Shown: positions 32,919 through 63,346, numbered from the stretch's first letter. The stretch is 64,000 bases of DNA from Nannocystis pusilla (GCF_049060185.1 NZ_JBMEQO010000002.1), one strand, 5' to 3'. Program-made: numbers and translations. The notes: a model not told the origin generated them from the letters alone.

Positions 32919-33048
32919 GGCTTCTCGGGGGACCCTGTGACGTTAACACACCTTCCCCGGTGTTGCGCGTCTTCGGCAAAACCCGGCGGCAGTCGCCGCA
33001 ATGGCGCGCGCGTAGAGGCGCAGGACGACGCGGTCGACGGCTTGTGGC

Positions 33049-36192: not shown

Positions 36193-36391
36193 GATCGTCA
36201 TCGCGTCACGACGCGCGCTCCGAGAGCCGCGACGATCTTCGTCGCGGCTCTTTGCGTTGGTCGCTGCCCCGCTCGACCTCGCGGGACTTGAGCGATCGAC
36301 CGCGACCTCTCGCGTCCCGCTCGCTCGAGCCCGCATCGCCTCCGAGCAGCGAGCAGCTCTCGCTGCTCCTCGAGCGTGCGACCTCTCGACC

Positions 36392-37290: not shown

Positions 37291-37447
37291 GGCGATTTTA
37301 TCGCGAACGGCTCGCGCGGGCGTCAACGCCTGCATCCGCGCCGAGCCGCTTCGTCGCCCGCGCGCGCGGCTCCAGCGCTGTCTTCACTGCAGCGCGGGAA
37401 CGCACGCCTCGGTTTGAGCCACCGTCTCATTCTGATACACTGGCCGA

Positions 37448-38996
37448 ATGGAGCCAGCAGCGCGCAAGAGACCGGCGAAGCCGAGCATCGGGGAGACACC
37501 GCCGCGGCGCACGCGGGTCGATCGCGACAGCGTGCTGTTCGCGCTCGGTGAGCTCGTGCGCCGCGAGGTCGACCTCGACGCCTTGCTGGCGCAGGTCATC
37601 GACACCGTCACCCGGGCCATGGACGCCGACCGCGGCACCTTCTACCTGGTCGATCGGGCCCGCGGCGAGCTGTTCAGCAAGGCCGCGCACTTGCCGGAGC
37701 TGCGCGAGATCCGTCTCAAGGTCGGCCAGGGCATCGCCGGCCACGTCGCGCGCACCGGCGAGGCCATCAACCTCTCGCACACCGAGGGCGACCCGCGGTT
37801 TTACGGCGCCATCGATCGCGCCACCAACTACGCCACGCGCTCGATGCTGTGCGTCCCGGTCCTCGATCGCGCCGGCGAGATCCTCGGCGTCCTCCAGCTC
37901 CTCAACAAGAAGGGCGCCGCCTTCGACGACGACGACGAGGCCTTGCTGCGCGCGCTCGCCAGCCAGGTCGCCATGCTGGTCGAGAGCACCAGTCTTTACG
38001 GCCAGCTGCGGGCCCCCACCGGCGGACCGCTGCGCTACCGCTTCAACGGCGTGGTCGGCGGCGGCGCGCGGATGAGACGCGTCTACGATCTCGTGACACG
38101 GGCGGCGGGCACCGACGCGACCGTCCTCATCACCGGCGAGACCGGCACCGGCAAGGGGCTGATCGCGCGGGCGATCCACTACAACAGCCCGCGCGCCGGG
38201 CGGCCGTTCGTCGCCGTCGACTGCGCCTCGCTGCCGGCCACCTTGATCGAAAACGAGCTCTTCGGCCACGAGCGCGGCGCGTACACCGGGGCCGACCAGC
38301 GCAGCGTCGGCAAGTTCGAGGCCGCCGACGGCGGCACCGTCTTCCTCGACGAGCTCGGCGAGGTCCCGCTCACGCTCCAGAGCAAGCTGCTGCGCGTCCT
38401 GCAGGACCGCGAGTTCGAGCGGGTCGGCGGGCGCAAGACCCTCAAGGTCGACGTCCGGATCCTCGCCGCCACCAACCGCAACCTCGAGGACATGGTCGCC
38501 CGCCAGCGCTTCCGCGAGGACCTCTACTACCGCCTGCGCGTGCTCTCGCTGGCCATGCCGCCGCTGCGCGAGCGCGGCCCCGAGGACCTCGAGCAGCTCG
38601 CCTACCACTTCCTGGCCGGCTTCGCCCAGCGCCACAACAAGCAGGTCGTGCGCTTCTCCCGCCCGCGCTCGCGCGGCTGCACGCCCACAGCTGGCCCGGC
38701 AACATCCGCGAGCTCGAGAACTGCATCGAGGGCGCGGTCGTCCTCAGCGTCGGCGACGCCATCGAAGTCGCCGATCTGCCGCTGCCCGCCGATCCGCGCG
38801 AGCCCCCGGCCGCGGGCCGCAAGGCCGGGCGCGGCGGGCCGACCTCGCCCGGCTGTCTTGGAACGAGATGGAGAAGCTCTACATCGAGGCCGTGCTGGCC
38901 GCCCACGACGGCAACCGCAGCGGCGCCGCCCGGGCCATGGGCATCGGCCGCGCCACCCTCCTGCGCAAGATCAAGACCCTCAAGATCCGCGCCTGA
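37448..38996 (+). CDS. Sigma-54-dependent transcriptional activator (GAF-AAA+-HTH, NtrC family); frameshifts near 38660 and 38850
   Basis: It has a GAF region. Walker A reads GETGTGKG. GAYTG and GGTVFLDE are present, the latter being the ESELFGHEKGAFTGA equivalent. It reads HSWPGNIRELEN. The C-terminal HTH reads AMGIGRATLLRKIK. Confidence 0.85.
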
Positions 38997-39136
38997 CCTC
39001 GGTCCCCGCGGGCCGTTCGCTGCAGGTGCATCGTAACGATCCACCTGCATCGATTTGATACACCTCGCTCCTGTCGCGACCGCGACATCCCTCGTTCACC
39101 CGCGCCACGACTCTGCAGCGGGCCCGTCACGGCGCC

Positions 39137-46275: not shown

Positions 46276-48096
46276 TCAGCGCAGCGCGCCGGCTCGGCGC
46301 AGCGCCTCGCGAGCGAGGTGGTGCTGCGCCGGATCCCAATAAAGGAGGAGCGACTTCTGCAGCTTCTTCTCGCGCAGCTCTTTCGCCGTGTAGACCGGCT
46401 GGCGCGTGAACGGATCGCGACCCGTGTAGTACATGCAGGTCGCCATGCTCATCGGCGTGGGGATGAAGTCCTGCACCTGCCTGGGTCGTACGCCTCGCGC
46501 CTTCAGCCATAGCGCGAGATCGACCATGTCATCGAGCGTGCTGCCCGGGTGCCCAGAAATGAAGTAGGGCACCAGATGCTGATCTTTGCCCGCGGCCTCG
46601 CTCGCGCACGCGAACTGCTCGGCGAAGCGTTCGTAGCTGGCGACCCCGGGCTTCTTCATTTTGGCGAGCACGTCGTCCTTCACGTGCTCGGGCGCCACGG
46701 ACAATTGTCCGCCGGTGTGATGCGTGGCGAGCTCGCGGATGAACGCCGGAGATCGTTCTGCCAGGTCGTAGCGGACGCCCGAGGCGATGAACACGCGCCG
46801 CACGCCCTCGGACTTGCGCACCTTCTTCAGCAGGTCGACGAGCGGCCCGTGGTCCGTGTCGAGGTTCTCGCACACGCCCGGGTGGACGCACGACAGCTTG
46901 CGGCACGCGCTCTCGATCTGCTCGCTCTTGCAGCGCATGCGGTACATGTTGGCCGTCGGCCCGCCGACGTCCGAGATCACGCCGCGGAAGTCGTCCATGC
47001 GGCGCAGCGCCCGGATCTCCCGCAGCACGCTCTCGGCCGAACGCGACTGGATGATGCGGCCCTCGTGCTCGGTGATCGAGCAGAACGTGCAGCCGCCGAA
47101 GCAGCCGCGCATTGTCACGATCGAGTGCTTGACCGTCTCGAACGCCGGGATCTTGCTGCCCGCGTACGTCCAGTGCGGCCGGCGCACGAACGGCAGGTCG
47201 TACAGCGCGTCCATGTCGCGCATGTCGAGCGGGTGCGCCGGCGGGTTGCAGTAGAGCGCCCGGTCGCCGTGCGGCTGGACCAGCGGCCGCCCGTTGCCCG
47301 GGTTCGTCTCGTGCTGGAACGCCCGCGACATCTCGAGGAACGCGTCCTTGTCGGCGCTCGCCTCCTCGAAGCTGGGCAGGTGCAGCGGCAGCCCGTCGCG
47401 CACGTAGCGGCTCTTCGGCAGGTGCTCCCACTGGCCCTTGGGCAGCATCACCGCCGTGCCGCGGACGTCGCGGATCGTGCTGATGTCTTCGCCGGCCTTG
47501 AGGCGCCGCGCGACCTCCCACACCGGCCGCTCGCCCATGCCGAAGATCAGCAGGTCGGCCTTGCTGTCGACCAGCATGCTGCGGCGCACCTGGTCGCTCC
47601 AGTAGTCGTAGTGGGCGATCCGCCGCAGGCTCGCCTCGATGCCGCCGAGCACCACCGGCAGCCCCGGGAACGCCTGCCGGGCCAGGTTCGAGTAGACGAT
47701 GCTGGCGCGGTTCGGCCGCTGCTCGAGCGCGCCGTCGGGCGAGTATTGATCCTCGCCGCGGATCTTCTTCTGCGCCGTCAGCTTGTTGAGCATCGAGTCG
47801 AGGTTGCCGGCGGTGATGCCGACGAACAGCCGCGGCCGGCCCAGCCGCGAGATGTCCTTCGGGTCATCCCAGCGCGGCTGCGCGATCATCCCGACCCGCA
47901 GCCCGCGGCCCTCGAGGAACCGGCCGATCAGCGCCCCGCCGAACGCCGGGTGGTCGACGTACGCGTCGCCGTTGATGATGAGCACGTCGAGCTCGTCCCA
48001 GCCGCGCGCGTCCATCTCCTCGCGGGTCATCGGCAGGAACGCCCGCAGGTCCCGCGGCGGCGCCGTCTTGCTGGCCCTGAGCTGGACGAGCGACAT
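46276..48096 (-). CDS. ygiQ: YgiQ-family radical SAM protein (UPF0313)
   Basis: It reads FLPMTREEM..GWD..D.LIINGDAYVDHP.FG and the radical-SAM motif CFGGCTFC. The ORF is intact. Confidence 0.8.
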   Translation of the reverse strand: MSLVQLRASKTAPPRDLRAFLPMTREEMDARGWDELDVLIINGDAYVDHPAFGGALIGRFLEGRGLRVGMIAQPRWDDPKDISRLGRPRLFVGITAGNLDSMLNKLTAQKKIRGEDQYSPDGALEQRPNRASIVYSNLARQAFPGLPVVLGGIEASLRRIAHYDYWSDQVRRSMLVDSKADLLIFGMGERPVWEVARRLKAGEDISTIRDVRGTAVMLPKGQWEHLPKSRYVRDGLPLHLPSFEEASADKDAFLEMSRAFQHETNPGNGRPLVQPHGDRALYCNPPAHPLDMRDMDALYDLPFVRRPHWTYAGSKIPAFETVKHSIVTMRGCFGGCTFCSITEHEGRIIQSRSAESVLREIRALRRMDDFRGVISDVGGPTANMYRMRCKSEQIESACRKLSCVHPGVCENLDTDHGPLVDLLKKVRKSEGVRRVFIASGVRYDLAERSPAFIRELATHHTGGQLSVAPEHVKDDVLAKMKKPGVASYERFAEQFACASEAAGKDQHLVPYFISGHPGSTLDDMVDLALWLKARGVRPRQVQDFIPTPMSMATCMYYTGRDPFTRQPVYTAKELREKKLQKSLLLYWDPAQHHLAREALRRAGALR

Positions 48097-48202
48097 GCGG
48101 CGAACACTAGTCGATCCCGCGCCGGCGCGCCCGTGCCTGCGCGTGCGCCACCTCTTGCCCGCGGCTTGCGGCGCCCCCGCCTCTCTCCTATTAATGCCGG
48201 GC

Positions 48203-48974
48203 ATGACCGAGGCGCCCGCCCTCGCCGCTCGCGGCCTGACCTGCCGGCTCGCCGAGCGGTTCCTCTACGAGGCCCTCGACCTCGACCTCCGGCGCGGCCG
48301 GATCTGCGTCGTCGCCGGCCCCAACGGCGCCGGCAAGTCGACCCTCCTGCGCACCCTCGCCGGGCTCGACCGTCCGCAGGCCGGCCACGTCGAGCTGCTC
48401 GGCGACCGCCTCGCCGCCCTCTCGCCCGCCGCGCGCGCCCGCCGGCTGGCCTATTTGCCGCAGCACTGCCCCGTCGAGCCCGACCTCCACGTGCGGGAGG
48501 TCGTCCTCCTCGGCCGGCTGCCCAACCTCCCGCGCTTCGGTCCGCCGCGCGCCGCCGACGCCGACGCCGCCGAAGCCGCCCTCGCGCGCCTCGGCCTCGT
48601 CGCCTTCGCCGAGCGCCCGATCGGCCGGCTCAGCGGCGGCGAGCGCCAGCGCGTCATGCTCGCACGCATGCTCGCGGCCGAGGCCGCCGTCGTCATCCTC
48701 GACGAGCCGGCCGCCGGCCTCGACATCGGCCACGCCCTCGGCCTCTACCGCCACCTGCGGGCCCTCACGCGCGAGGGGTGGCGGTCCTCGTCGCCGAGCA
48801 CGACCTCGACCTCGCCCGCCGCCACGCCGACGACGCGGTCCTGCTCGCCGCCGGCCGCGCCCGCGTCGGCGCCTGCCCCGACGTGTTCAGCCCGCAGCAC
48901 CTCGGCGCGGCCTTCGGCGTCGTCGCCCACGAGCGAGACGGCCGCCTGTTCTTCGAGGCCCCGCCCGCGAGCTG
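48203..48974 (+). CDS. ABC transporter ATP-binding protein (FecE/HmuV-like, orphan); frameshift near 48780
   Basis: It reads GPNGAGKST, LSGGERQR and ILDEPAAGLD. It lies divergent from ygiQ. Confidence 0.75.
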
Positions 48975-49076: not shown

Positions 49077-49894
49077 TCAGCGCGGCAGCAGCCCCGCCGC
49101 CTGCCCGCGCGCGCGCAGCTCGGCCAGCGCCGCCGCCCCTTCCGCGCCCATCTCGCGCGAGAACTCGTTGACGTACAGCGCGATGTGCTGCCGGCACACC
49201 TCGTCGCTCAGCTCCTGCGAGTGCGCCTTCACGAACGGCCACGCCGCGGCAGGGTCGTCCTCCGCCGCCGCGATCGAGCGGGCGATCCCTCCTCCACCGC
49301 CCGCAACTGCCCCGCGGGCAGCGAGCGGTGGGCCGCGATCACCCCGAGCGGCAGCGGCAGCCCCGTCGCCGCCTCCCACACCTCGCCGAGGTCCGCCACC
49401 TGCTGCAGCCCGTGGTCGCGGAACACGAACCGCGCCTCGTGGATCACCAGCCCCGCGTCGACCTCGCCCGCGGCCACCGCCGGCATGATGCGATCGAAGC
49501 GCATCGGCACCACGCTCACCGACGCCGGCGCGAAGCAGCGGAGCAGCAGGTGCGCCGTCGTGTACGCCCCCGGGATGGCGATCCTCCGCCCCGCCAGCGC
49601 CGCCAGCTCCGTCGCCTCGCGCGCGACCACCAGCGGCCCGCAGCCGCGGCCCAGCGCCGCGCCTGTCCGCAAGACCAGGTAGTCGCGCTCGACCCAGAAC
49701 AGCCCGTGCGCGCTCAGCTTGGTCACCGGCAGCGGCGCCTCGCCGGCCAGCGTGCGCTCGTTGAGCGCCTCGATGTCGGCCAGCCACGGCAGCGGCCGCA
49801 GCCCCGGCACGAACTCCGGCACGCGCACCAGCGCGTCGAACATCCACGTGTCGTTCGGACACGGCGAGAACCCGATCGGCAGCGGCTCGCTCAT
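49077..49894 (-). CDS. mqnD: 1,4-dihydroxy-6-naphthoate synthase (futalosine pathway MqnD); frameshift near 49270
   Basis: It reads MSEPLPIGFSPCPNDTWMFDAL, which is the MqnD N-terminal signature. Confidence 0.7.
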
Positions 49895-50537
49895 TCGTTC
49901 CCCCAGTTCGCGGCCTGCAGTCGCAGCAGCGCCGCCTGCACCCCGGCCACCGCGCGCGGCAGGTCCCACCCGCCCGCGGCGCGTCGGCCGGTTCGATTGC
50001 TCACGCAGCGCAGCTGCACCACGGCACCCCGAGCGCCCGGCAGGCCCACGCCACCGCCGCCCCCTCCATCGTCTCGACCGTGGCCTCCGTGCCGCTGGCC
50101 AGCGCACGCGAGCGAGCGTCCGTCCCGCTGCAGGTGCTGACCGTCGCCCCGCGCACCACCGGCGCCGCGAGCACTCGCGCCGCCGCGGCGGTGCGCCCCG
50201 CGTCGGCTTCGAACGGCCCGACCGACCCGAGCCCCAGCTGCGCCAGCGGCAGGAAGCCGTCGTCGACCGCGACCCCCTCGTCGCCCAGCCAGTCCTCGCC
50301 GACCAGGCACACGTCGCCGACGTCGAGCCTGCCTCCCGGGCCATGTCCTTCGGGATAGGCGCCGCAGACCCCGAACAGCAGCACCCACGCCGGCCGGCGC
50401 TCGATCAGCGCCTGCGTCATGCTCACCGCCGACGCCACCTTGCCGACGCCGAGGCGCAGCGCCGAGGGCAGCCCGCGGCCCTCGACCTCGGCGGCGCAGA
50501 CGAGCAGCGGCGCGGTCACGGCCACACGATAGCGCAC
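49891..50537 (-). CDS. mqnB: Futalosine hydrolase (MqnB, PNP/MTA nucleosidase fold); frameshift near 50010
   Basis: It reads RLGVGKVASA..TQ.LIE..P..VLLFGVCGAY and VQLRCVSN. Its stop abuts the mqnD ATG. Confidence 0.65.
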
Positions 50538-50624
50538 CTCGCCGCGCGTCCCACCGGTGACACCCCGACCGGTCTCACGCCGGAGGAATTCTTAAACACA
50601 CGAGCAATCGTCCGCGCCAACTAC

Positions 50625-50640
50625 TTACTCGCGCGAGTAA
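50625..50640. promoter_or_regulatory. Perfect 16-bp palindrome TTACTCGCGCGAGTAA in the 290-bp low-GC region upstream of the lipid locus
   Basis: The sequence is an exact inverted repeat. It lies about 190 bp upstream of the HAD-IB ATG. Confidence 0.4.
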
Positions 50641-50761
50641 ACATCTCGCCCGCTCGCGACCGACGCCGGCAAAGCCCCGTGAACCGACGCCAGGCCCCTC
50701 TGCGCTCGATCCTGCGAAGCCCCCTGCACGCGTAAAACGACGTGCGCAGCGGCCTTCGCAG

Positions 50762-50785
50762 GCATTCGCGGCGCCACGCGAATGC
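50762..50785. promoter_or_regulatory. Second inverted repeat GCATTCGCG-N6-CGCGAATGC about 47 bp upstream of the HAD-IB start
   Basis: It has exact 9-bp arms. Confidence 0.4.
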
Positions 50786-50831
50786 TTGTAACGCCGGCCT
50801 CGGGTGCGCTAACTAGGCCGCGAGCCTGGTC

Positions 50832-51510
50832 GATGACACAAACCAACACGGCAGCATTCGTCCGCGTCGAAGGCATCCTGCTCGCCCGCGGCGTGCTCAG
50901 CGCGGCGGCCTATCTGGCCGGCAACGCCAAGAAGTTCGGTGAGCGGGCCGTCCGCCTCGGCCTCGTCGGCCTCGCCGCCCCGGTCCACCGCCTGCTCGGA
51001 CAGACTGACCGCGCGCTGGCCCACCGCCTCGCCCACCTCGCCATCCGTGGCATGAGCCAGGACCGCGTCGAGGTCCTGTGCGAGGAGTACGCCGAGGATG
51101 TCCTGAAGGACACGATCCTCGATCAGGGCCTGGAGCTGCTCAAGCGCCTGCAGGCCGAGGGGCGGCGGGTCGTGCTGCTGTCGGACAGCATCGAGCCGAT
51201 CATGAAGCCGCTCGCGCGCCACCTCAAGCACTACGACGAGCTCGTCTACAACAAGATCGAGTTCGAGGACGGCGAGGCCACCGGCAAGCTGCTCGACCCG
51301 GTCATCGGTTCGAACGTCGGCGGCCGCTGGCTCGACGACTACGCCGCCGCCCACAACTTCGAGCTGTCGCGCTGCGCCGCCTACGGCGCCCACGGCCCGG
51401 ACATGCTGCTGCTCTCGCGCGTCGGCAAGCCGTGCGCCGTCAACCCCGACTTCGTCCTGCGCCGCAGCGCCAAGGACGCCGACTGGCCGATCATCGATTA
51501 TCGCGACTGA
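50832..51510 (+). CDS. HAD-IB family hydrolase (phosphoserine-phosphatase-like)
   Basis: It has an SDS-type motif (VVLLSDS) and a GD..D motif. Confidence 0.65.
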
Positions 51511-51538
51511 CCTTGGGGACAGGAACCGGAGGACACCC

Positions 51539-53223
51539 GTGAACACGCCGATCTCGATCAAGCACAGCTACGCCGGCCGCCATGTCCTGCTCACCGGGGT
51601 CACCGGCTTCCTCGGCAAGGTCTGGCTGGCGATGGTCCTGCAGTACGTGCCGGACGTCGGCAAGATCTACGTGCTCACGCGCAAGAAGGCGCTGCGCCCC
51701 GCCGCCGACCGGTTCGAGCGCCAGGTCCAGACCTCGCCGTGCTTCCGCCCGCTGCACGAGAAGTACGGCGCCGACATGAGCCGCTTCATCAGCGAGCGGA
51801 TCGAGGTCGTCTCCGGCGACGTCTCGCTGCCCGACATGGGCGTCGAGGACCCGGCCGTGCTGGCCCGCCTGCGCCGCGACATCGACCTCGTGATCAACTG
51901 CGCCGGCCTCGTCGACTTCGACCCCGACCTGCGCGAGGCCATGACGACCAACGTCGAGGGCGCCCGCAACGCCGCCAACTTCGTCGCCGCCTGCGACAAG
52001 GCGGTCCTGCTGCACATCTCGACCTGCTACGTCACGGGCAAGAAGAACGGCCTCATCCCCGAGGACATCCGCCCCGACCTCTCGCCCGCCGGCGACCCGT
52101 TCGACGTCGAGGTCGAGTGCGCCGAGGTCCAGGCCAGCATCGACGCCATCCTCGCCGAGCACGAGTCGCCGGAGATGGACAAGCGCGCCCACGACGACGC
52201 GGTCAAGCAGATCCGCGACAAGGGCGGCGACGAGAGCAACGCGATGCTGGTGCGCAACACCGCCCGCCGGATCAAGCGCAACCTCTTGAAGGACGCGATG
52301 GTCGCCGAGGGCCAGCGCCGCGCCGGCCGCTGGGGCTTCACCAACATCTACACGTACACCAAGAACATGGCCGAGGCGTGGATCGCCCGCCGCCTCGATC
52401 CCGGCCGGTGGAGCATGTTCCGCCCCGCCATCGTCGAGAGCTCCATGAGCTACCCGTTCCCCGGGTGGAACCAGGGCTTCAACACCTGCGGCCCGCTGAG
52501 CTACGCGCTCGGCAGCTGGTTCCGCCACCTGCCGTGCAAGCGGGCAACCCGTTCGACATCATCCCCGTCGACTACGTCTGCCGCGGCATGACCGTCGCCG
52601 GCGCCGCGCTGATGCGAGGCGAGCACGCGCCCGTGTATCAGTGCGGCAGCTCGGACCTCAACCTCCTCACCATCGACCGCGCCGTCGAGCTGGTCGCGCT
52701 GGCCCACCGCAAGCACCTGCGCACCCGCGGCGACACCACCCTCGACCGCGTCGTCAAGTCGCGCTGGGACGCGATCGCCGTCACGCCCGACCACCCGATG
52801 CGGATCGAGAACGTGCGCAAGATGACCGAGTCGGTCGACGAGTGGCTGCGCGACCCGCCGAAGGGCTGGCCGGAGTTCATCCGCCGCCGGCTCGGCGACC
52901 TCGTCGAGCACACCGAGGACGCGCTCGAGGCGATCGACAAGATCGAGCGCATGTGCGAGCTCTACCTGCCGTTCATCCACGACAACTACTTCGCGTTCGT
53001 CACCCGCAACCTGCTGCGGCACCCCGTCGTCGAGCCCGAGTGGGACTGCGACCCGCGCAGCATCGACTGGCGCCACTACTGGATCGACGTCCACATCCCC
53101 GGGCTGCGCAAGTGGTGCTTCCCGCTGTTCGAGAACAAGACCCCCGAGAGCTACGCCCCGCGCCACCCCTTCCGCTTGCGCTCGCCCGAGGCCGCGCCCG
53201 CGCCCCACGCCGAGGTCGTCTGA
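51539..53223 (+). CDS. Fatty acyl-CoA/ACP reductase (NAD_binding_4 plus FAR C-terminal domain); frameshift near 52530
   Basis: It reads VLLTGVTGFLGKV, YTYTKNMAE (YxxxK) and a sterile C-terminal domain. Confidence 0.75.
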
Positions 53224-53227
53224 CACC

Positions 53228-54372
<1,145 letters not shown>

Positions 54373-54382
54373 CCCTTCGAAC

Positions 54383-55863
54383 ATGTCCAAGAGCGCACCC
54401 GTCAAGAAGACCACCAGCAAGATCTGGGACAAGGTCAAGGACGTCGTCGACCCCGACCGCGCCCTCCAGGCCACCGTCGCCGCCGCCATCGAGGGCGTCG
54501 CCGTCCGCAACGTCCTCGGCATGGCGCCGGAGACGTGGAAGCCGGGCAAGCCGCTCAAGCTGCTGCTCGCCGGCTACGTCGGCACGCGCAACACCGGCGC
54601 CGACGTCCGCGTCGAGGAGATGATCCGCCAGCTGCGCCACGTCGTCGGCGACGACGAGCTCGAGCTGACGATCATGACCGTCGATCCCAAGTTGACGCGC
54701 GGCTACTTCCGCGCCGTCCACCAGATCGAGCTGCCGGCGGTGTTCCCCAAGTTCATCGCCACCGAGTGCCCGAAGCACCACGGCGTCATCGCTTGCGAGG
54801 GCTCGATGTTCAAGTCGAAGTTCTCGAGCGCGCTGACCTGCTTCATGGCCGGCGCGCTCGGCCTCGCCAACGCCGAGAACAAGGTCAGCGTCGGCTACGG
54901 CGCCGAGGCCGGCAACATGACCCCGGCGCTCCGCGACTTCGTGCGCGACGCCTGCAAGAAGTCGCTGGTCATCTGCCGCAACGAGCCCTCGCGCAAGGTC
55001 CTCGGCGAGCTCGGCATCCGCACCACCTCCGGGGCCGACACCGCCTGGACCTTCGACCCGGCGCCGCTGTCGCGCGGCGCCCAGCTCCTGCGCGACGCCG
55101 GCTGGGACGGCCGCCAGAAGGTCCTCGTCGTCTGCCCGATCAACCCGTTCTGGTGGCCGGTCAAGCCCGACCTGCTCAAGTACGCCGCCTACAAGCTCGG
55201 CGGGCAGTACAAGCACGAGCACTACAGCGCCTTCTACTTCCACCACCACAGCGAAGCGGCCGACAAGAAGTACAACGCGTATATCCAGGCCCTGGCCGAC
55301 GGCGTCAACGCCTTCGCCGCGGAGCGCGAGTTCTTCACCATCCTCGTCGGCATGGAGCAGCTCGACCGCCACGCCTGCGAGGACCTGCAGCCGCGCCTCG
55401 ATCGCGGCGGCGCGCTGTTCGTCAGCGACGAGCACGACATGTACGACCTCGTCAGCGTGCTGCGTAACTGCAGCATGATGGTGAGCTCGCGCTTCCACGC
55501 GATCGTCACCTCGATGCCCGGCCTCGTGCCCTCCGCCGGCGTCACCATGGACGAGCGGATCCGCAACCTCATGAACGACCGCGGCCACCCGGACATGTTC
55601 TTCGAGGTCGACGAGGAGGGCCTCGGCGAGAAGCTGCTGCACACCCTGCGTCGCCTGTGGCGCGACGCCGAGGGCATCAGCGCCGACATCGCCCGCGCCG
55701 TCCCGGCCCAGCTGAAGCTCATGGGTCAGATGGGCATCGACTTCATGGACGAGGTCGTCCGCGTCTACCCCGAGTTCCCGCGGCGCGACCTCCGCGCACC
55801 TGGGAAGCCCACCTGCCGCCGCTGCCGGCCAACGTGCAGCGCCTGCTGGAGCGCCACGCATGA
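54383..55863 (+). CDS. Polysaccharide pyruvyl-transferase-family protein; frameshift near 55800
   Basis: It is about 490 aa. The core reads VSSRFHAIVTSMPGLVPSAGV. The ATG sits inside GAACATGTCC. Confidence 0.55.
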
Positions 55864-57493
55864 GCGACAACTTCCTCGAAGTCATCCACGCCGCGGTCCA
55901 GAAGACCCGCGAGGATCAGCTCCTCATCGAGCTGCACGGCAAGGAGCGCCGGCCCACCTCGGCCGCGCAGCTGCTGCACCTCGTGGCCCACGCGCGCGGC
56001 TTTTTGCGCAGCCGCGGCGTCAAGCCGGGCGACCGCGTCGCCCTGCTCGCGCCCAACTCGGCCCGCTGGGTCGCCGCCGACCTCGCCATCCTGTTCGAGG
56101 GCGCGATCGTCGTCCCGCTCTACAGCCGCCAGGATCCCAAAGAGCTGGCGGTGATGGTCAAGGACTGCACGCCGGTGCTCGTCATCGCCGACGGCCCCGA
56201 GCTCGCCGCCGGCCTGCGCAACGCCTGGCCCGAGCACTCCCCGATCGAGGATCTGGCCGACGTCCTCCGCGGCGAGCCGGTGCACGAGCCGCCGCGCCCG
56301 GTCGCGCCGACCGACCCGGTCACCATCATCTACACCTCCGGCACCAGCGGCGAGCCCAAGGGCGTCGTCCTCACCCGCGCCAACGTCGACTACATGCTGC
56401 CGCAGACCCGCGGCAGCGTCGACCGCATCACCGGCGGCAAGCGGGCCGACAAGGTGTTCCACTTCCTGCCGTTCTGCTTCGCCGGCTCGCGCGTCATGCT
56501 GTGGACGCAGCTGTACCGCGGCAACCCGCTGCTGCTGTCGACCGACCTGCAGAACCTCGTCGCCGAGATGGGCGCCGCCGACCCGCACTACTACCTCAAC
56601 GTGCCGGCGGTGCTCGAGCGGATCAAGAACGGCGTCGGCAAGAAGATCGCGGAGCGCGGCGGCCTCGCCCTCGCGCTGTACGACCGCGGCCAGGCCGCCT
56701 TCCGCGCCGAGCGCGAGGGCAAGGCTGGCCTTTGGACAGGCTGACTCTGGCCGCCGCCAAGAAGCTGGTCTTCAGCAAGATCAAGCAGCAGATCGGCCCC
56801 AGCCTCGAGTTCCTGATCTGCGGCTCGGCGGCGCTGGCCGAGGAGACGCAGTGGTGGTTCGAGCTGGTCGGCGTGCAGGTCTATCAGGTCTACGGCCTGA
56901 CCGAGACCACCGCGATCGTCACCATGGACATCCCCGGCGGCGTGCGCCCCGGCTACGTCGGCCACGCCATCCAGGGCTGCGAGATCAAGATCTCCGACGA
57001 GGGTGAGCTGCTGGTGCGCGGCCCGGGCATCTTCGCCGGCTATTGGGGCCGCGAGCAGGCCACCGCCGAGGCGATAAGGGACGGCTGGTTCCACACCGGC
57101 GACCAGGGCGACCTCGACGCCACCGGCAACGTCCGCATCATCGGCCGCGTCAAGAACATCCTCGTCCCCGAGTCGGGCCACAACATCGCCCCCGAGCCGA
57201 TCGAGGAGAAGTTCCTCGCCGCCTGCCCCAAGGCCGAGCAGTGCATGCTGGTCGGCCACGCGCGGCCGTTCCTCGGCATCATCGTCCCCGGCGACGTGCC
57301 GAAGGACGCCATCGACGCCGCCCTCGAGGTCGTCAACGCCAGCGTCCCGCACTACAAGAAGGTCCGCGCCTTCATCCGCGTCGCCGAGCCGTTCACGATC
57401 GAGAACGGCCTCCTCACCGCCAACCAGAAGCTGCGCCGCCGCGCCGTCGAGCAGCGCTACCGCGCCGAGATCGACAAGGCCTACGCGTCATGA
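55860..57493 (+). CDS. Long-chain acyl-CoA synthetase / AMP-dependent ligase; frameshift near 56740
   Basis: It reads IIYTSGTSGEPKGV, YGLTETT and GW.HTGD. Confidence 0.8.
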
Positions 57494-58261
57494 TCGACTG
57501 GACCTACAGCGAAGGCGTGTACGAGCTGACCCTCGCCACGCCGCCGTGCAACGAGATCGGCACGACCATGCTCGCCGATCTGCGCCGCTTCCTCGACCAG
57601 ATCGATCGCGACGCGCACACGCTGATCCTGCGCAGCGGCCTGCGCCAGGGCTTCTGCGCCGGCGCCGACCTGCGCGAGCTCTACCGCGGCCTCTCCGACG
57701 CGCCGAAGGACCAGCACGGCCCGCAGATCCGCCAGTTCATCGACGCCATCCACGGCGTCATGGACGACCTCGACATGCTGCCGTTGACCACCGTCGGCGT
57801 CGTCCACGGCGTCTGCTTCGGCGGCGGCTTCGAGCTCGCGCTCACCTGCGACGTCCTGATCGCCGAGAAGACCGCGCGCTTCTGCTTCCCCGAGCTGCGC
57901 CTCGGCATCATCCCCGGCTTCGGCGGCATCCCGCGGCTGCGCCGCGACGTCGGCAACGGCCTCATCCGCGACCTCCTGCTCAGCGGCCGCAGCATCAACG
58001 CCAAGAAGGCGCTGGCGGCCGGCCTCGTCAGCCAGGTCCTCGCCAGCGGCGAGGGCATCACCGCCGCGCGCGCTCGCGGCCCAGACCGCCAAGTTCGACA
58101 AGACCGCGCGCGAGGCCGCCAAGGCCTTCATCAAGAAGCTCCCGAAGGACGAGTTGCTCGCCGAGCGCGAGCTGTTCGTCCGCCTCGCCGAGGGCCCGGC
58201 GCTGCTGGCCGCCCTCAAGCGCTTCGTCGAGTCCACCGACCTGAGACCGTACCTGCCATGA
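57490..58261 (+). CDS. Enoyl-CoA hydratase/isomerase (crotonase); frameshift near 58080
   Basis: It reads FCAGADL and VHGVCFGGGFELAL. ATGA overlaps lie at both ends. Confidence 0.75.
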
Positions 58262-58490
58262 GCACCTCCTCGACACCCTCATTCGTCTCGCCGCCAAGCG
58301 CTTCGGCGCCGACCCGGCCCAGCTCCGCGCCGAGGACGACCTGTTCGAGCGCCTCGGCATCGACAGCTTCCAGGCCGTCGAGCTCATCTCGGACGTCGAG
58401 GACGAGTTCGACGTCGAGCTGCCCGACTACGAGCTCCAGGGGATCAAGACCTTCGCCGCCCTGGCGCAGAAGATCGACGCGAGGCGCTAG
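58258..58490 (+). CDS. Acyl carrier protein; 1-nt indel right after the ATG
   Basis: It reads FERLGIDSFQAVELISDVEDEFDVELPD (DSL/F phosphopantetheine site). Confidence 0.65.
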
Positions 58491-60205
58491 ATGCTCGACC
58501 TGGGAAAGCTGTCCTGCCTCGGCGAGGCGCTGCGTGACGCCACCATCACGTACAAGAGCCGGACCGCGCTGATCGAGGCCGATCGCCACCGCGAGAACTC
58601 GCGCCACACCTTCGCCGAGCTGCGGGCGGCGGCCGAGCGGTTCGCCGCCGCCGTCCAGGCCCACGGCTTCGGCCCCGGCGATCGCTGCGCGATCGTCATG
58701 CAGAACCAGTCGAAGTGGCTGATCGGCGCCACCGGGGCCCTGTGGGCCGGCGCAGTGCTGGTCCCGATCGACTACAAGCTGACCGCGCCCGAGCAGCACG
58801 CCCTGCTCGCCCACTGCCGCCCGCGCGTCGTCCTCGCCGAGTGGCCGGCGTGGGACAAGCTGCAGCGCGAAGATCCCTCGATCTTCGAGCGCACCCTCGT
58901 CATCGTCACCGAGGCCCCCGAGGGCGCCGGCATCGGCCGCGCCGTGCGCTGGGAGGACCTGCCCCAAGGAGCAGGTTTCACCTACCACGCCCGCGCCCGC
59001 GAGGACGTCGCCTGCATCGTCTACTCCTCGGGCACCGGCGGGACCGCCAAGGGCTGCCAGCTCACCCACGGCAACTACCTCGCCCAGGCCGAGACCCTCG
59101 GCAACCTCTACCCGCTGAGCGAGGGCGATCGTTACTTCTCGATCCTCCCGACCAACCACGCCATCGACTTCATGTGCGGCTTCCTGCTCGCGCTGATGAT
59201 GGGCGGCGCGGTGGTCCACCAGCGCACCCTGCGGCCGGCTTACCTGGCCAGCACCATGAAGCGCTACGGCATCACCCACATGGCGCTGGTGCCGACGATC
59301 CTCAAGACCCTCGAGAAGAAGATCAAAGAGAAGATCGCCGAGCTGCCCAAGTGGCAGCGGCTCGTGCTCGATGGCCTGATGGACCTCAACGAGTACGCCA
59401 CCCGCCAGGCGCCCGACCACCGGCTCAGCAAGACCCTGCTCGCCCCGATCCACGAGTACTTCGGCGGCAAGCTGCGGCTGATGTTCTGCGGCGGCGCCTT
59501 CGTCGACCGCACGAGCGCCGAGTACTTCAACCGCCTCGGCCTGCCGGTCGCCATCGGCTACGGCCTCACCGAAGCCGGCACCGTCCTCACCGTCAACGAC
59601 CTCAAGCCGTTCCGCGGCGACAGCGTCGGCAAGGCGGTCGAGGGCACCGAGCTCGAGCTGCGCGACGTCAACGACGCCGGCGTCGGCGAGGTGTGGGTGC
59701 GCGGGCCCACGGTCATGCTCGGCTACCTCGACGCGCCCGAGCTGACGCGCGAGGCGATCGTCGACGGCTGGCTGCGCACCGGCGACCTCGGCAGCATCGA
59801 CGCCGCCGGTCACCTCAAGCTGTTCGGCCGCACCAAGAACATGATCGTCACCGAGGGCGGCAAGAACGTCTACCCCGAGGACATCGAGGCCGCCTTCGGC
59901 GACATCGACGACTGCGAGGAGTTCTGCGTGTTCGCGGCCAACTTCATCTGGCCGACCGGCAAGATGACCGACGAGCAGCTCATCGTCGTCGTGCGGCCCA
60001 AGTCGGGCCTCGACGAGGCCGGCCGCGCCGACCTCGTCGACGCCTTCCGCAAGCGCAACCTCCGGCTCGCCGACTACAAGCGGATCTCCGCCTACGTGCT
60101 GTGGGACCGCGAATTCCGCGCACCGCCTCGCAGAAGATCAAGCGCGACCCGCTCGCCCGCGAGCTCAAGCCGCTCGGCCGCGACGGCGCCCTGCGGGAGC
60201 TGTGA
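58491..60205 (+). CDS. AMP-dependent ligase (fatty acyl-AMP/CoA ligase); frameshift near 60120
   Basis: It reads IVYSSGTGGTAKGC, YGLTEAG and GWLRTGD. Confidence 0.8.
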
Positions 60206-60290
60206 ACCGCCGCGGGCTACCGCCGCTCACGCCCCATAACCGCGGCCATCCGCCCCTCCACGGCCCTCCGGGGCCTGATAGCATGCCCGC

Positions 60291-61199
60291 ATGCACGATC
60301 CGGCCACCCTCCTCGCAGTCGTCAACCCAGCCGCCGGCGGCGGCGTGTGCGGCAAGCGGGCGCCCGCGGTCGTCGACCGGTTGCGGCAGTCGGGCATCAA
60401 GGTCGACGTCGTCGAGACGCGGGCCGCCGGTCAGGCCACCGAGCTCGCGCGCGAGGCCGTCGCGGCCGGCCGGCGCCACTTCATCGCCGTCGGCGGCGAC
60501 GGCACCAGCTACGAGCTGATCAACGGCATCTTCTCCGGCGCGCTGCCGGAGGGCGAGCGCCCGTCGCTCGGCATGCTGCCCCTCGGGACAGGTAACTCCT
60601 TCCTGCGCGACTTCACCGATCAGGGGGCCGAGTACGCGATCGAGGCCATCATCGCCGGCAAGACCCGGCCGTGCGACCTCGTTCGTTGCACGCACACCCG
60701 CGGCGCCCTGCACTTCATCAACATCTTCAGCATCGGCTTTGTCGCCGACGTCGGCGCCACCCGCAACCGCAACTTCTCGGCCCTGGGCGAGTTCGGCTAC
60801 ACGCTGAGCACCGTGCTACGGGTGGCCGCGCTGCGGCCCTACACCTTCCCGATGCAGATCGACGGTCACCCCGAGGACCGCGAGCCGCTGACCTTCCTGT
60901 CGTTCAACAACAGCCGCTTCACCGGCGGCAAGATGATGATGGCGCCCGACGCCAACACGCGCGACGGCCTGCTCGACATCATCCGGGTCGGTCGCCTCGG
61001 CCGCGTCGGCCTGCTGCGCACCTTCCCCAAGATCTTCAGCGGCGCGCACGTGCAGCACCCGGCCGTGCGCTGCTACCAGGCCCCCGGCCTCGACCTCCGC
61101 CTCGCCGAGGACATCGACGTCATGGTCGACGGCGAGATGATCAAGATAAACCCGCGCCGGCTGGAGGTCGTCCCCGGCGCGCTCGACGTCCGGACGTGA
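60291..61199 (+). CDS. YegS/DgkA-type lipid kinase (diacylglycerol-kinase catalytic domain)
   Basis: It reads FIAVGGDGTSYE and LPLGTGN. The ORF is intact. Confidence 0.75.
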   Translation: MHDPATLLAVVNPAAGGGVCGKRAPAVVDRLRQSGIKVDVVETRAAGQATELAREAVAAGRRHFIAVGGDGTSYELINGIFSGALPEGERPSLGMLPLGTGNSFLRDFTDQGAEYAIEAIIAGKTRPCDLVRCTHTRGALHFINIFSIGFVADVGATRNRNFSALGEFGYTLSTVLRVAALRPYTFPMQIDGHPEDREPLTFLSFNNSRFTGGKMMMAPDANTRDGLLDIIRVGRLGRVGLLRTFPKIFSGAHVQHPAVRCYQAPGLDLRLAEDIDVMVDGEMIKINPRRLEVVPGALDVRT

Positions 61200-61203
61200 T
61201 GTA

Positions 61204-61998
61204 ATGGTGTTCAAGATCCTCAAGAAGGCAGCTCAGGTCGTCTACTCGGCCGCGGTGTGGACCGTCTCGTTCGCGTGGATGGGCGCCGTCGCCGTCACGT
61301 GGGCCGCGGTGTCGACGGTGGTCCCGTCGCGCAAGACCCACAACTACATCGGCGGGCCCGGCATGGGCGCGGTCCTCAAGATCACCCTGTCGAAGGTCGA
61401 GATCATCTACGACCCCGACTTCGACCCCGAGCGGCGCGGCGTGTTCATGATGAATCACGTCAACCTGCTCGACGCGCACGCCGCCTGCGCCTCGATCCCG
61501 CACGCCTTCTGCGGCCTGATGAACGCCTGGCAGTTCAAGATCCCGATGTACGGCTGGATCATGAAGCTGGCCGACGGCATCCCGGTGCCGGACGGCAAGA
61601 ACCGCTACCGCGCCATCGCCGAGGCCGCGCGCGACCGGGCCAAGAAGGGCATCTCGATCCTCGCCTTCCCGGAGGCCCACCGCACGCTCGACGGCAAGGT
61701 CGCCGAGTTCAAGCGCGGCGTGTTCTGGATGGCCCGCATCGCCGGCCTCCCCGTCATTCCGCTGGCCACGCACGGCATGTACGATCTGATGCAGAAGGGC
61801 TCGTACCTGCTCACGCCGACCAAGATCACGATCTACGTCGGCGCCCCGATCGAGACGAAGGGCCTGTCCGACGCCGAGCTGGCGGAGGTCATGGAGCGGG
61901 CCCACAAGATCATCGCCGACTTCGCGGAGCGCGGCATCGTGCCCGGCCGCGCCGCGCCGATCCCCTCCGACGCCACGCCGATCGCCTCCGGCGCCTGA
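61204..61998 (+). CDS. plsC: 1-acyl-sn-glycerol-3-phosphate acyltransferase (PlsC/LPLAT)
   Basis: It has an N-terminal TM. It reads FMMNHVNLLD (HxxxxD) and AFPEAHRT. The ORF is intact. Confidence 0.8.
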   Translation: MVFKILKKAAQVVYSAAVWTVSFAWMGAVAVTWAAVSTVVPSRKTHNYIGGPGMGAVLKITLSKVEIIYDPDFDPERRGVFMMNHVNLLDAHAACASIPHAFCGLMNAWQFKIPMYGWIMKLADGIPVPDGKNRYRAIAEAARDRAKKGISILAFPEAHRTLDGKVAEFKRGVFWMARIAGLPVIPLATHGMYDLMQKGSYLLTPTKITIYVGAPIETKGLSDAELAEVMERAHKIIADFAERGIVPGRAAPIPSDATPIASGA

Positions 61999-62077
61999 TC
62001 GCCCGAGTCGGCGATCGGGGTCGGTGAATCCTCCGTCTGCAAGTCGCGGCGGCGGAGATGTGGGACCCGGGTCATCG

Positions 62078-62127
62078 CGGCAGTGTGACGGCCATCGCCC
62101 GCGTCACACTGCCGCGATTTCCTTTCG
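62078..62127 (+). terminator. Stem-loop with 13-bp perfect arms CGGCAGTGTGACG/CGTCACACTGCCG and 11-nt loop, followed by a T-rich tail
   Basis: It lies about 80 nt downstream of the plsC stop. The tail reads CGATTTCCTTTCG. Confidence 0.5.
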
Positions 62128-62326
62128 AGATTCCGGCCACGCGCGCGATGCCGCTGCGTGGCATTGCTCGTTCCTGTCCCGGGTGTGTGTGACGGACGTA
62201 CGAACCGTGGAGCCATCGAACGGGCCGCACACGGGGACGGCTGGGTCCGCCCGTCCGCAAGGATTTCGGTCACCTTGCGCGCCCGAAGGACCTCGATCAT
62301 GCCGAGAGGTCAGAGAAGATGGGACC

Positions 62327-63346
62327 ATGACTCGAGGGATTTGGCTGGCACTGGTCTGTTCGGTTGTGGCCTGTGATGTCGTCGATAACGACGTTCAAAC
62401 GGCGGTTACGCTGCGAAGCGACGTCGGTAACGGACTCGAGTTGAACTCCGCCGTGATGAACGGTCAGCAGTTCAACGGCATGCGCATGAACGGCATCAAC
62501 CTCAACGGGATGCGCATGAACGGTTGGACCATCAACGGGATCAACCTCAACGGCATCAACCTCAACGGCAGCAGCTTCTCGGCCACCATGGTCGTCGACG
62601 GCACTCCGGTTCAGGTGAGCGGCGACGACCTCATCGGCTCGCTGCTCACCCTAGAGGCCGGCACCGACACCTACGTCCTGCGCTTCGACGACATCTTCCT
62701 CGACCCGACCGACCCCGACGGCGACGTGTGGTTCTACGACATCGCCGTGCAGGACGTGGAGGCCGGCACCTGGTCCAGCCTCTGCTACGACCACCTCGGT
62801 CAGCCGACCCAGGCGATCGCCATCGGCAACTGGTGGGACGGCGTCACCGGCGACCGCAACGACGACGCCAGCGTCGTCACCTTCGCCTGCCGCGACGCCG
62901 TGCTCGCCAAGTGCGTCGAGTGGGGCTATCGCCCGTGGGCCACCGTCGGCGGCGTCTCCCTCGCCGATCACCACCAGGCGTGCACCCGGCTGGCCCGCGC
63001 CGACTACTGCGGCGACGGCACCCCGCACACCTTCAACGGCACGCCGATCGACGTGTTCGACGGCCTCAGCCCGGCGATCCAGGCCCCGGCCACCCTGACC
63101 ATGCAGAACTGGGGCATCGAGGCCGAGTGGGGCCCGGACGGCGCCGTCTGTGTCGGCGACCAGCGGCGCCTCAAGATGCTCGACGACGCCGGCGTCCCCT
63201 ACGAGTTCCCGACCTGCCTCGACGCCATCGACGACATCAGCACCTGCGGCGACTTCGACAGCGGCCGCGGCGGCCTCCTGGCCGATCGCTACTGCGACAA
63301 GTGGCAGTCCGACCCGGGCTCCTGCGACGGCTCCCAGCCGAACTGA
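62327..63346 (+). CDS. Secreted lipoprotein with pentapeptide-like repeats (xNGxx)x8 and ADYC domain
   Basis: It has a signal peptide and lipobox (VVAC). It has MNGINLNGMRMNGWTINGINLNGINLNG repeats. It reads LARADYCGDGTPHT. Confidence 0.65.
   Translation: MTRGIWLALVCSVVACDVVDNDVQTAVTLRSDVGNGLELNSAVMNGQQFNGMRMNGINLNGMRMNGWTINGINLNGINLNGSSFSATMVVDGTPVQVSGDDLIGSLLTLEAGTDTYVLRFDDIFLDPTDPDGDVWFYDIAVQDVEAGTWSSLCYDHLGQPTQAIAIGNWWDGVTGDRNDDASVVTFACRDAVLAKCVEWGYRPWATVGGVSLADHHQACTRLARADYCGDGTPHTFNGTPIDVFDGLSPAIQAPATLTMQNWGIEAEWGPDGAVCVGDQRRLKMLDDAGVPYEFPTCLDAIDDISTCGDFDSGRGGLLADRYCDKWQSDPGSCDGSQPN

Follow-up and report, generated by a model that had tools for sequence, protein, structure and literature searches.

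Which lipid would be made by a bacterial operon in which two reductases, two AMP-forming ligases, an acyl carrier protein and a lipid kinase stand beside a member of the polysaccharide pyruvyl transferase family, and is such an operon a variant of a known ether-lipid pathway? The question is raised by a locus at positions 50833-61998 of a 64,000-nt stretch of the Nannocystis pusilla genome (GCF_049060185.1, NZ_JBMEQO010000002.1), hereafter called the window, the positions being counted from its first letter. An initial annotation of this DNA had described an eleven-gene block with the domain set of the myxobacterial ElbD-like ether-lipid machinery, split into discrete genes and preceded by palindromic operators. 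We find that the locus belongs to a widespread, tightly syntenic family of lipid-biosynthesis clusters of Myxococcota, Bdellovibrionota and Acidobacteriota.

Gene content of the locus

At a GC content of about 71.5%, plain lists of open reading frames (ORFs) are ambiguous, and the frames were set with a GC3 frame plot and a seven-state Viterbi frame path. Both show unbroken coding on the + strand from about 50.8 to 62.0 kb, with frame switches within genes. Pfam scans of the open frames, together with a reading of the junctions, gave ten co-directional genes (G1-G10), one fewer than had been claimed. The Pfam families follow in the order HAD (PF12710); NAD_binding_4 and, in another frame, Sterile; NAD_binding_4 over two frames; PS_pyruv_trans; AMP-binding (two frames) with AMP-binding_C_3; ECH_1; PP-binding; AMP-binding; DAGK_cat with YegS_C; and Acyltransferase, so that every family named by the initial annotation was recovered in the block.

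50833-51510, + strand: G1, HAD-IB-like protein (HAD), 225 aa; Pfam HAD E=2e-18
51539-53223, + strand: G2, fatty acyl reductase (FAR; NAD_binding_4 and Sterile), 561 aa after correction of a 1-nt deletion at 52542
53228-54372, + strand: G3, stand-alone thioester-reductase-type short-chain dehydrogenase/reductase (SDR), here RED, 381 aa; 1-nt deletion at 53483
54383-55863, + strand: G4, PS_pyruv_trans-family GT-B enzyme (PPT), 493 aa; 1-nt deletion at 55792
55860-57493, + strand: G5, long-chain acyl-CoA-synthetase-type (ACSL-type) ligase (AMP-binding and AMP-binding_C_3), 544 aa; 1-nt deletion at 56731
57490-58261, + strand: G6, crotonase/enoyl-CoA hydratase (ECH), about 256 aa; 2-nt deletion at 58065
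58258-58490, + strand: G7, acyl carrier protein (ACP), 77 aa; 1-nt deletion at 58268
58491-60204, + strand: G8, second ANL-family ligase, about 571 aa, always adjoining the ACP gene; 1-nt deletion at 60116
60291-61199, + strand: G9, YegS/Rv2252/BmrU-family lipid kinase, 302 aa; Pfam DAGK_cat and YegS_C
61204-61998, + strand: G10, PlsC-type (AGPAT-like) acyltransferase, 264 aa, with a hydrophobic N-terminus

Neighbouring genes overlap by ATGA at three junctions, abut as TAG-ATG at one and are otherwise 4-28 nt apart, with a single larger gap of 86 nt before G9; the spacing is operon-like, and the block is a single ten-gene operon. Four overlaps had been listed previously. That at 57490 is present as the DNA stands, those at 55860 and 58258 appear only after frame correction, and the junction at 58490 is the TAG/ATG abutment, with no overlap. 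The start of G1 is the ATG at 50833 and not at 50782. The GC content of the locus is 69.4%, compared with 71.5% for the window. The upstream region, described as low in GC and 290 bp long, is a spacer of about 240 nt with 66% GC, and is only mildly low.

Conservation of the block across phyla

Relatives of PPT occur in at least 586 species genomes when GTDB is scanned with one genome per species. The synteny counts below use the best 80 of these loci (cited by L numbers, and with Myxococcus not among them), which were compared by tblastn with the ten frame-corrected window proteins. In a protein search, more than 7,000 proteins match PPT at E <= 0.001, and the best 120 are all at least 65% identical; PPT is 50-70% identical between phyla, and its metagenomic copies are counted in thousands. 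The 80 loci belong to Nannocystaceae, Polyangiales, Sandaracinaceae, Bradymonadia and Bdellovibrionota, and about half of them to Acidobacteriota (Terriglobia, Blastocatellia and 'Acidiferrales').

The genes for HAD, FAR and RED lie directly upstream of PPT in 60 of the 66 loci with enough upstream DNA, and those for ECH, ACP, ligase and kinase follow downstream in 40 of 56 with enough downstream DNA. Where both flanks are available, at least eight of the ten genes are colinear in 40 of 51 loci, spread over Myxococcota, Bdellovibrionota and Acidobacteriota. Independent gene calls combined with Pfam recovered the full ten-gene operon in L085 and its first five genes in L001 and L086. The conserved core consists of HAD, FAR, RED, PPT, ECH, ACP, ligase G8 and the kinase. 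In several Myxococcota loci the gene for the ACSL-type ligase G5 is not found at its usual position. The earlier proposal that these genes form one functional unit is thus decisively upheld by the synteny, as opposed to a chance run of separate operons. No description of this block or gene-cluster family was found in the literature searched.

The surroundings of the core vary in a few lineages. In L048 (16893-18644) and 9-12 other Terriglobales, a small ORF (about 144 aa), a VKOR-family membrane protein (about 154 aa) and a PF00756 esterase form a conserved, co-directional trio 3' of the kinase gene, in the place of PlsC. A metagenome-assembled genome (MAG) labelled Planctomycetes (L003) keeps the order PPT-ligase-ECH-ACP-ligase-kinase-PlsC; a small 23S_rRNA_IVP-family gene (L003:10636-11106) lies between its PPT and ligase genes, and there is no HAD, FAR or RED gene in the 9 kb upstream. 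Six Myxococcota loci (L008, L010, L011, L014, L016 and L017) carry 7-9 kb of unrelated genes between PPT and ligase, among them an amino-acid permease and a conserved protein of about 1,000 aa on the opposite strand, which offer no functional clue.

Frameshifts in the window copy

Seven of the ten genes are frameshifted in this copy, by 1 nt at 52542, 53483, 55792, 56731, 58268 and 60116 and by 2 nt at 58065, which had gone unmentioned in the initial annotation. The window DNA is 97.4-97.5% identical to N. pusilla Na p29 (L005) and Nannocystis sp. RBIL2 (L024), and all seven shifts are deletions relative to the intact L024, several of them within short homopolymer runs. L086, a metagenome contig from short reads with 97.3% identity, lacks the deletions at all four of the sites within its range, and its called genes, of 225, 561, 381, 493 and 544 aa, have exactly the corrected window lengths, as do those of L001. 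Substitutions relative to L024 fall at codon positions 1/2/3 in the ratio 34/21/127, and the third-position bias persists on both sides of every shift, indicating purifying selection on the flanking sequence.

If the shifts were real, the locus would be a decaying pseudogene cluster in the course of being lost from this strain, as the seven genes out of frame in the given sequence might suggest at first sight. This is highly improbable: three relatives at 90-97% nucleotide identity to the window are intact, the codon-position bias is strong either side of each shift, six of the seven are single-base deletions, and the same kind of frame switch is found all over the window, including similar deletions in the adjacent menaquinone and radical-SAM genes. 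Since the relatives are intact and the substitutions are mainly at third positions, the seven frameshifts almost certainly reflect errors of sequencing or assembly rather than gene decay. Comparison with close relatives shows single-base deletions throughout the window (for example at 45739, 46289, 48165, 48778, 49287, 50019, 62023 and 62313), and the coding frame likewise switches without stop codons, some ten times in the interval from 6.5 to 11.1 kb. The underlying assembly appears to be indel-rich, and gene calls anywhere in it need frame correction.

The pyruvyl-transferase-family enzyme

PPT is the most conserved member of the block, and a 99%-identical intact protein is available (P0001). 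It scores 42.2 bits against Pfam PF04230 (PS_pyruv_trans; cut-off 25.3) and 73 bits (E=2e-20) against the CsaB equivalog model, for which the cut-off is 213; judged by these profiles, it is a member of the PS_pyruv_trans family and not a CsaB. An AlphaFold2 model (pLDDT 88.7) has the two Rossmann domains of a GT-B fold, although sequence and profile searches against PDB sequences gave no meaningful match. Invariant residues R199, R370-F-H372 and R392/R394 match in motif spacing, not by superposition, the residues that bind phosphoenolpyruvate (PEP) in CsaB (R148, H308 and K328) and Pvg1p (R217, R337, H339 and K361) (PMC10435577). G4 shares with CsaB, Pvg1p, WcaK and DxpH the PF04230 domain and the GT-B fold, and its conserved basic residues and histidine, which have the spacing of a PEP site, may correspond to one. 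Relative to known ketal-pyruvyl transferases it has about 100 extra residues and a conserved C-terminal tail. It differs from them also in its setting, as it sits among lipid enzymes: the conserved block contains no glycosyltransferase or polysaccharide-export gene. A precedent for a lipid acceptor exists in the family member DxpH, which places a pyruvyl ketal from PEP on a lipid-chain diol in vitro (PMC12964715).

The HAD-like protein, reductases and other enzymes

Catalytic motifs are conserved in every enzyme of the block except the HAD-like protein. G1 scores 71.7 with TIGR01490, below the cut-off of 98.3, and in the window and the orthologs inspected its motif I reads F-(F/V)-R-V-E-G, with R-x-E-G in the place of D-x-D-G. 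The DxDxT nucleophile of HAD phosphatases is not present, and the motif I Asp is missing throughout this set. As the nucleophilic Asp is missing, G1 is probably not a phosphatase, and would serve rather as a binding or regulatory partner of FAR. In 36 loci, almost all of them labelled Acidobacteriota, one ORF encodes both HAD and FAR, giving proteins of about 770 aa (for example L073:6536-8842, a 768-aa fusion of HAD, NAD_binding_4 and Sterile). These fusions are strong evidence that the HAD-like protein and FAR act together. A role for G1 in FkbH-type loading of glyceryl-ACP was considered and rejected on HAD subfamily and size, FkbH belonging to a different HAD subfamily and being of a different size.

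Of the solved structures, that of the fatty acyl-CoA reductase 7eoz is nearest to G2 (E=3e-33), and intact 561-aa orthologs are present in L001 and L086. G3 is closest, among solved structures, to the carrier-protein-dependent reductase domains of MxaA and carboxylic acid reductase (CAR), and matches TIGR01746 (E=3e-39). Its YxxxK motif, the adenylation core motifs of the ligases and the carrier Ser of the ACP (in the DS motif of G7) are conserved, and G8, G7 and G3 together look like a split adenylation-ACP-reductase module of the CAR or ElbD kind. With the adenylation-thiolation-reduction modules of CAR and of nonribosomal peptide synthetases (NRPS) such as MxaA, they share the logic of adenylation (G8), carrier (G7) and thioester reductase (G3); they differ in that the parts stand alone and lie inside a glycerolipid operon and not in an NRPS/polyketide synthase line.

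Both ligases, G5 and G8, are generic ANL ligases by their nearest relatives, which are acyl-CoA ligases, and the label of fatty acyl-AMP ligase that had been given to them is not established. G6 keeps both catalytic Glu residues of crotonases. G9 passes the curated model TIGR00147 (151.8 bits, cut-off 118.65) and has a conserved GGDGT motif, and G10 carries the HX4D and FPE..RT motifs. No NCBIfam equivalog names any of the ten proteins. Synthesis of ceramides or sphingolipids was rejected as a function, there being no serine palmitoyltransferase-type gene in the block.

Comparison with known ether-lipid pathways

In M. xanthus, the elb operon encodes two NAD-dependent SDRs (ElbA and ElbE), an HAD protein (ElbB), ElbC and the fused ElbD (PMC9131029, PMC13012113), the last being a reductase-adenylation-ACP-acyltransferase (PMC9131029). 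A second route in the same species (MXAN_1676-1674) uses AGPS, a FAR-GNPAT fusion and an SDR (PMC9131029, PMC13012113). Our comparison rests on the published descriptions of the Elb proteins and covers all but ElbC, for which no paper in the literature searched makes a link to a pyruvyl transferase. The block draws on the same domain types as elb, with which a fatty acid can be activated, bound to an ACP and reduced and a glycerol backbone acylated, and has an HAD-IB-like partner protein; neither needs AGPS, and both occur in Myxococcota and Acidobacteriota. In the block, however, all domains are separate proteins in another order, and it has conserved genes that are missing from the available accounts of elb, namely those for PPT, the crotonase, a further ligase, the YegS-type kinase and a FAR with a Sterile domain.

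A multidomain fusion of the ElbD type was found neither in the window nor in the 80 GTDB loci; in both, each of the four domain types has a gene of its own, in the order RED ... ACP-ligase ... PlsC. Among 12,301 matches to G10, from a search of 1.84 billion representatives, the best 150 are all 103-470 aa long and mostly of the size of a stand-alone PlsC, and none of these 150 has the size of an ElbD or FARAT fusion (>1000 aa). The view of the locus as myxobacterial ElbD-like machinery therefore holds for its domain vocabulary, which matches elb (PMC9131029), but not for its derivation by splitting of ElbD, since the PlsC relatives are all short and the block has a fixed architecture of its own. 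The canonical elb biosynthetic gene cluster (BGC) is reported not to be conserved in Nannocystis, Polyangium and Sorangium (PMC12224551), which is compatible with the block being an alternative to it and proves nothing.

The eukaryote-type plasmanyl route (FAR, GNPAT, AGPS, acyl/alkyl-dihydroxyacetone phosphate reductase and alkylglycerol kinase) also has counterparts here, namely a FAR with a C-terminal Sterile domain, an SDR, an acyltransferase for glycerolipids and a lipid kinase possibly serving as alkylglycerol kinase. It differs in that the block has no AGPS, its acyltransferase is a 264-aa AGPAT-type protein that is neither GNPAT nor fused to FAR, and FAR is instead found fused to the HAD-like domain. 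An AGPS-type FAD domain was detected neither in the ten genes nor in their conserved neighbours, nor in any of the 20 further window ORFs that were scanned. The elb-like BGCs of sponge symbionts resemble the block in having reductase and adenylation genes with DAG kinase, GPAT and CDP-alcohol phosphatidyltransferase neighbours, but are defined by a fused or two-piece ElbD, and no pyruvyl-transferase-family gene or hydratase is mentioned for them (10.64898/2026.06.23.733905). The best reading of these comparisons is that the block may represent an elb-independent pathway that has neither a fused ElbD nor AGPS.

Predicted pathway and alternative products

We tentatively propose, as the leading one among several candidate product classes, an alkyl-ether-type (fatty-alcohol-derived) glycerophospholipid made with neither AGPS nor a fused ElbD. 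In this scheme G5 would produce long-chain acyl-CoA, which the FAR G2, together with its non-catalytic HAD-like partner G1, would convert to fatty alcohol. A second building block, reduced and possibly hydroxylated, would come from G8, ACP, crotonase and G3: G8 would load an acid onto the ACP (G7), G6 would hydrate or otherwise modify the thioester, and G3 would release it reductively as aldehyde or alcohol. G4 would then perform the signature step on a lipid hydroxyl, probably with PEP. The resulting lipid alcohol, for example an alkylglycerol, would be phosphorylated by G9, in the manner of the alkylglycerol kinase step of the mammalian pathway (PMC9131029), and acylation by G10 would give a phosphatidic-acid analogue entering phospholipid synthesis.

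A link to phospholipids is suggested by a convergent CDP-alcohol phosphatidyltransferase gene that adjoins PlsC in seven loci (L071:17595-18314 on the - strand, L039, L041, L045, L046, L079 and L083). The TetR gene and conserved operator found in relatives (see below) may likewise point to regulation of a lipid type, and both Myxobacteria and Acidobacteria are cited among the aerobic makers of alkyl ether lipids (10.64898/2026.06.23.733905). Several points weigh against the ether-lipid proposal. The known enzymes that form ether bonds (AGPS and PlsA/Ger) are not in the block, no report of ether lipids in Nannocystis was found in the literature searched, and the roles given to PPT, crotonase and the HAD-like protein are guesses. 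The nearest solved relatives of G5 and G8 include oxalate, malonate and o-succinylbenzoate ligases, so that a specificity for fatty acids is not demonstrable, and PlsC is absent in many Terriglobia loci, where the esterase, VKOR protein and small ORF are found instead. Nearly all carriers are uncultured MAGs: two Nannocystis strains and Paraliomyxa miuraensis are the only named isolates among the best 80 loci, and searches for cultured carriers of known lipid profile with acidobacterial and Sandaracinaceae PPT orthologs returned almost only MAG or metagenome proteins.

The features of PPT also lend themselves to a pyruvylated lipid, in which the enzyme would set a pyruvate ketal from PEP on a lipid diol to give an anionic 1,3-dioxane or dioxolane carboxylate lipid. 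The diol would be a long-chain alkane-1,3-diol, formed by crotonase hydration of an enoyl thioester and full reduction by G3 or FAR, or the free diol of a monoalkyl- or monoacylglycerol, with kinase and PlsC building or modifying the remainder. The score of G4 above the Pfam threshold, the invariant R199, R370, H372, R392 and R394 in the spacing of the CsaB and Pvg1p residues (PMC10435577), the precedent of DxpH with PEP in vitro (PMC12964715) and the expectation that a crotonase and two reductases would yield a 1,3-diol all speak for such a product. We nevertheless regard it as rather unlikely, given that the PEP-residue match is one of motif spacing and not superposition, that the block has no acyl-CoA dehydrogenase to supply the enoyl substrate, and that no pyruvylated lipid was reported for these phyla in the literature found. 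Still less probable is a module without ether bonds, which would supply free alcohols or aldehydes for wax esters or signalling or serve lipid salvage, exogenous lipid being degraded or recycled via the ligases, crotonase and kinase. FAR with an acyl-CoA ligase is a standard front end for wax esters, beta-oxidation typically involves a crotonase and ligases, genes for fatty-acid degradation are commonly under TetR-family control, and an esterase gene lies 3' of the kinase gene in 10 Terriglobia loci; but wax synthase/DGAT, acyl-CoA dehydrogenase, 3-hydroxyacyl-CoA dehydrogenase and thiolase are all missing from the block, and the dedicated ACP, carrier-dependent reductase, PlsC and neighbouring CDP-alcohol phosphatidyltransferase point to phospholipid biosynthesis.

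A true elb orthologue, in which M. xanthus elbB-E with a split ElbD follow an unchanged route to the same AEPE- and TG-1-type lipids, is quite unlikely for the architectural reasons already given. The vocabulary of HAD-IB, reductase, adenylation, ACP, acyltransferase and NAD-dependent SDR is the same (PMC9131029), and split elbD variants are reported from Poribacteria and soil Acidobacteria (10.64898/2026.06.23.733905), but that split falls only between the reductase and adenylation domains. Here the ACP precedes the ligase, the HAD protein lacks its catalytic Asp, four or five extra genes (PPT, crotonase, second ligase, kinase and a separate FAR with Sterile) are conserved, and the best 150 PlsC relatives (103-470 aa) include none of ElbD size. 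Just as doubtful, at present, is a more radical variant of the ether-lipid proposal, in which an AGPS-independent and oxygen-independent synthesis would draw the glycerol carbons from PEP. PPT would join the FAR-made fatty alcohol to PEP, giving an O-alkyl enolpyruvate (2-alkoxyacrylate), a ligase, with or without the ACP, would convert this to a thioester, the crotonase would hydrate the acrylyl double bond, and the thioester reductase would yield an O-alkylglycerol, from which the YegS-type kinase and PlsC would make a plasmanic-acid-like precursor. If true, this scheme would provide a job for every conserved gene and a candidate ether-bond chemistry for aerobic soil Acidobacteria, including the producers of the brGDGTs (branched glycerol dialkyl glycerol tetraethers) used as palaeoclimate markers.

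Upstream region and regulation

The following elements were located upstream of G1.

50625-50640, strand not assigned: TTACTCGCGCGAGTAA, an exact palindrome of 16 nt that lies 193 nt upstream of the G1 ATG, within the divergent spacer
50711-50762, + strand: imperfect hairpin in the 5' leader, with 23-nt arms (83% complementary) and a 6-nt loop
50762-50785, + strand: exact palindrome/hairpin GCATTCGCG-N6-CGCGAATGC

The two exact palindromes reported earlier are thus both present, and stand modestly above chance. The window holds 9 perfect 16-mer palindromes (5.2 +/- 2.1 expected) and 30 inverted repeats with arms of at least 9 nt and a 0-8 nt spacer (12.4 +/- 4.2 expected), and the joint chance of two palindromes in one spacer of about 240 nt is roughly 1e-3. 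Both are conserved within Nannocystis-type sequences only. The right half of TTACTCGCGCGAGTAA is invariant in four such sequences while its left half varies (TTACTCAC in L024, TTGCCCGC in L001), so its symmetry is not strictly conserved. In the element at 50762-50785, the outer stem GCATTC/GAATGC is invariant and the inner stem changes yet stays complementary (CGCG/CGCG, GAC/GTC or AAG/CTT). With such compensatory changes it looks more like a leader hairpin than a fixed operator. The hairpin at 50711-50762 is highly conserved in L005, L024 and L001, and lies within the fold of the 136-nt leader (-68.6 kcal/mol, z = -2.9). An Rfam scan of the leader gave low-scoring matches only and none at the gathering score; a sigma-70 scan found no promoter-like site, and terminator-like sites were fewer than in shuffled sequences. 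A sigma-54 promoter picked out by eye in the leader was rejected, as its -12 element is not conserved among the Nannocystis sequences.

Distant Myxococcota carry a different palindrome, (G/T/A)ACTGAC-N2-GTCAGTC (TAGACTGAC-N2-GTCAGTCTA), 28-87 nt upstream of the first gene. It matches 18 times in 1.37 Mb of loci, and 16 of the 18 matches lie either at this distance from the first gene or immediately upstream of a PPT gene that stands alone, at these positions:

L018:233, L019:425, L021:6393, L023:6449, L026:6205, L027:1829, L028:6501, L030:1194
L034:6444, L036:6274, L037:6363, L043:6645, L055:6141, L062:3558, L031:269, L038:9876

In 11 relatives the eleventh and last gene of the operon encodes a TetR-family regulator (TetR_N and TetR_C_24). 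Examples are:

L023:15742-16521, L029:8626-9282, L047:7363-8028, L021:16530-17144, L027:11236-11841

The TetR gene occurs together with the operator in each of the eight relatives whose operon is visible at both ends, and the two form a candidate regulator-operator system. The window itself has neither: no match to the operator of the relatives was found at 50501-50900 with up to 4 mismatches allowed, no homolog of their TetR protein was found in the window, and none of the 20 other window ORFs scanned has a TetR or GntR domain, so that the nearby TetR/GntR protein envisaged by the initial annotation did not come to light. The idea of repressor operators upstream of the block thus fits the family, with its TetR gene and operator, better than the window copies, which are genus-specific and in one case hairpin-like. 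A further motif, ATTGTTTACAAT, occurs about 85-110 nt upstream of the HAD-FAR start in 13 of 34 Acidobacteriota-labelled loci (L073, L072, L076 and L077 among them). Its sequence is nearly palindromic (ATTGT-N2-ACAAT) and might contain a TACAAT resembling a -10 element.

Neighbouring genes

Divergently upstream of the block, at 49229-50591 on the - strand, are menaquinone genes of the futalosine-pathway type (VitK2_biosynth and a PNP_UDP_1 nucleosidase), and beyond them a YgiQ-type radical SAM protein is encoded at 46276-48264. The same neighbours are found in L001, L005 and L024, and PNP_UDP_1 lies upstream in L006 and L015 as well. After the operon, an ADYC-domain protein (PF20032, E=1.5e-60) is encoded at 62024-63346; it is found downstream in two Nannocystis genomes only (86% identity) and is therefore not part of the conserved block. 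Elsewhere in the window, two intergenic regions (28090-28315 and 36225-36368) contain dense perfect palindromes and nested inverted repeats, and genes at 37436-39058, 26047-28083, 23397-25472 and 31827-32942 specify a GAF and sigma-54 activator, an acyl-CoA dehydrogenase and two Ser/Thr protein kinases, with no link to the lipid block.

Significance of the cluster family

The steps from fatty acid to ether are unsettled even for ElbD (PMC9131029), and no enzyme is assigned to ether-bond formation in acidobacterial lipids and brGDGTs (10.64898/2026.06.23.733905). The block described here is among the most conserved lipid gene clusters of two dominant soil phyla, and offers a pyruvyl-transferase-family enzyme in a purely lipid context. 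With intact sequence available in Nannocystis sp. RBIL2 and in MAGs, it presents a ten-gene target that can be expressed. Should its product prove to be an ether or pyruvylated lipid, the cluster would represent a new biosynthetic route and a genomic marker for soil lipid producers.

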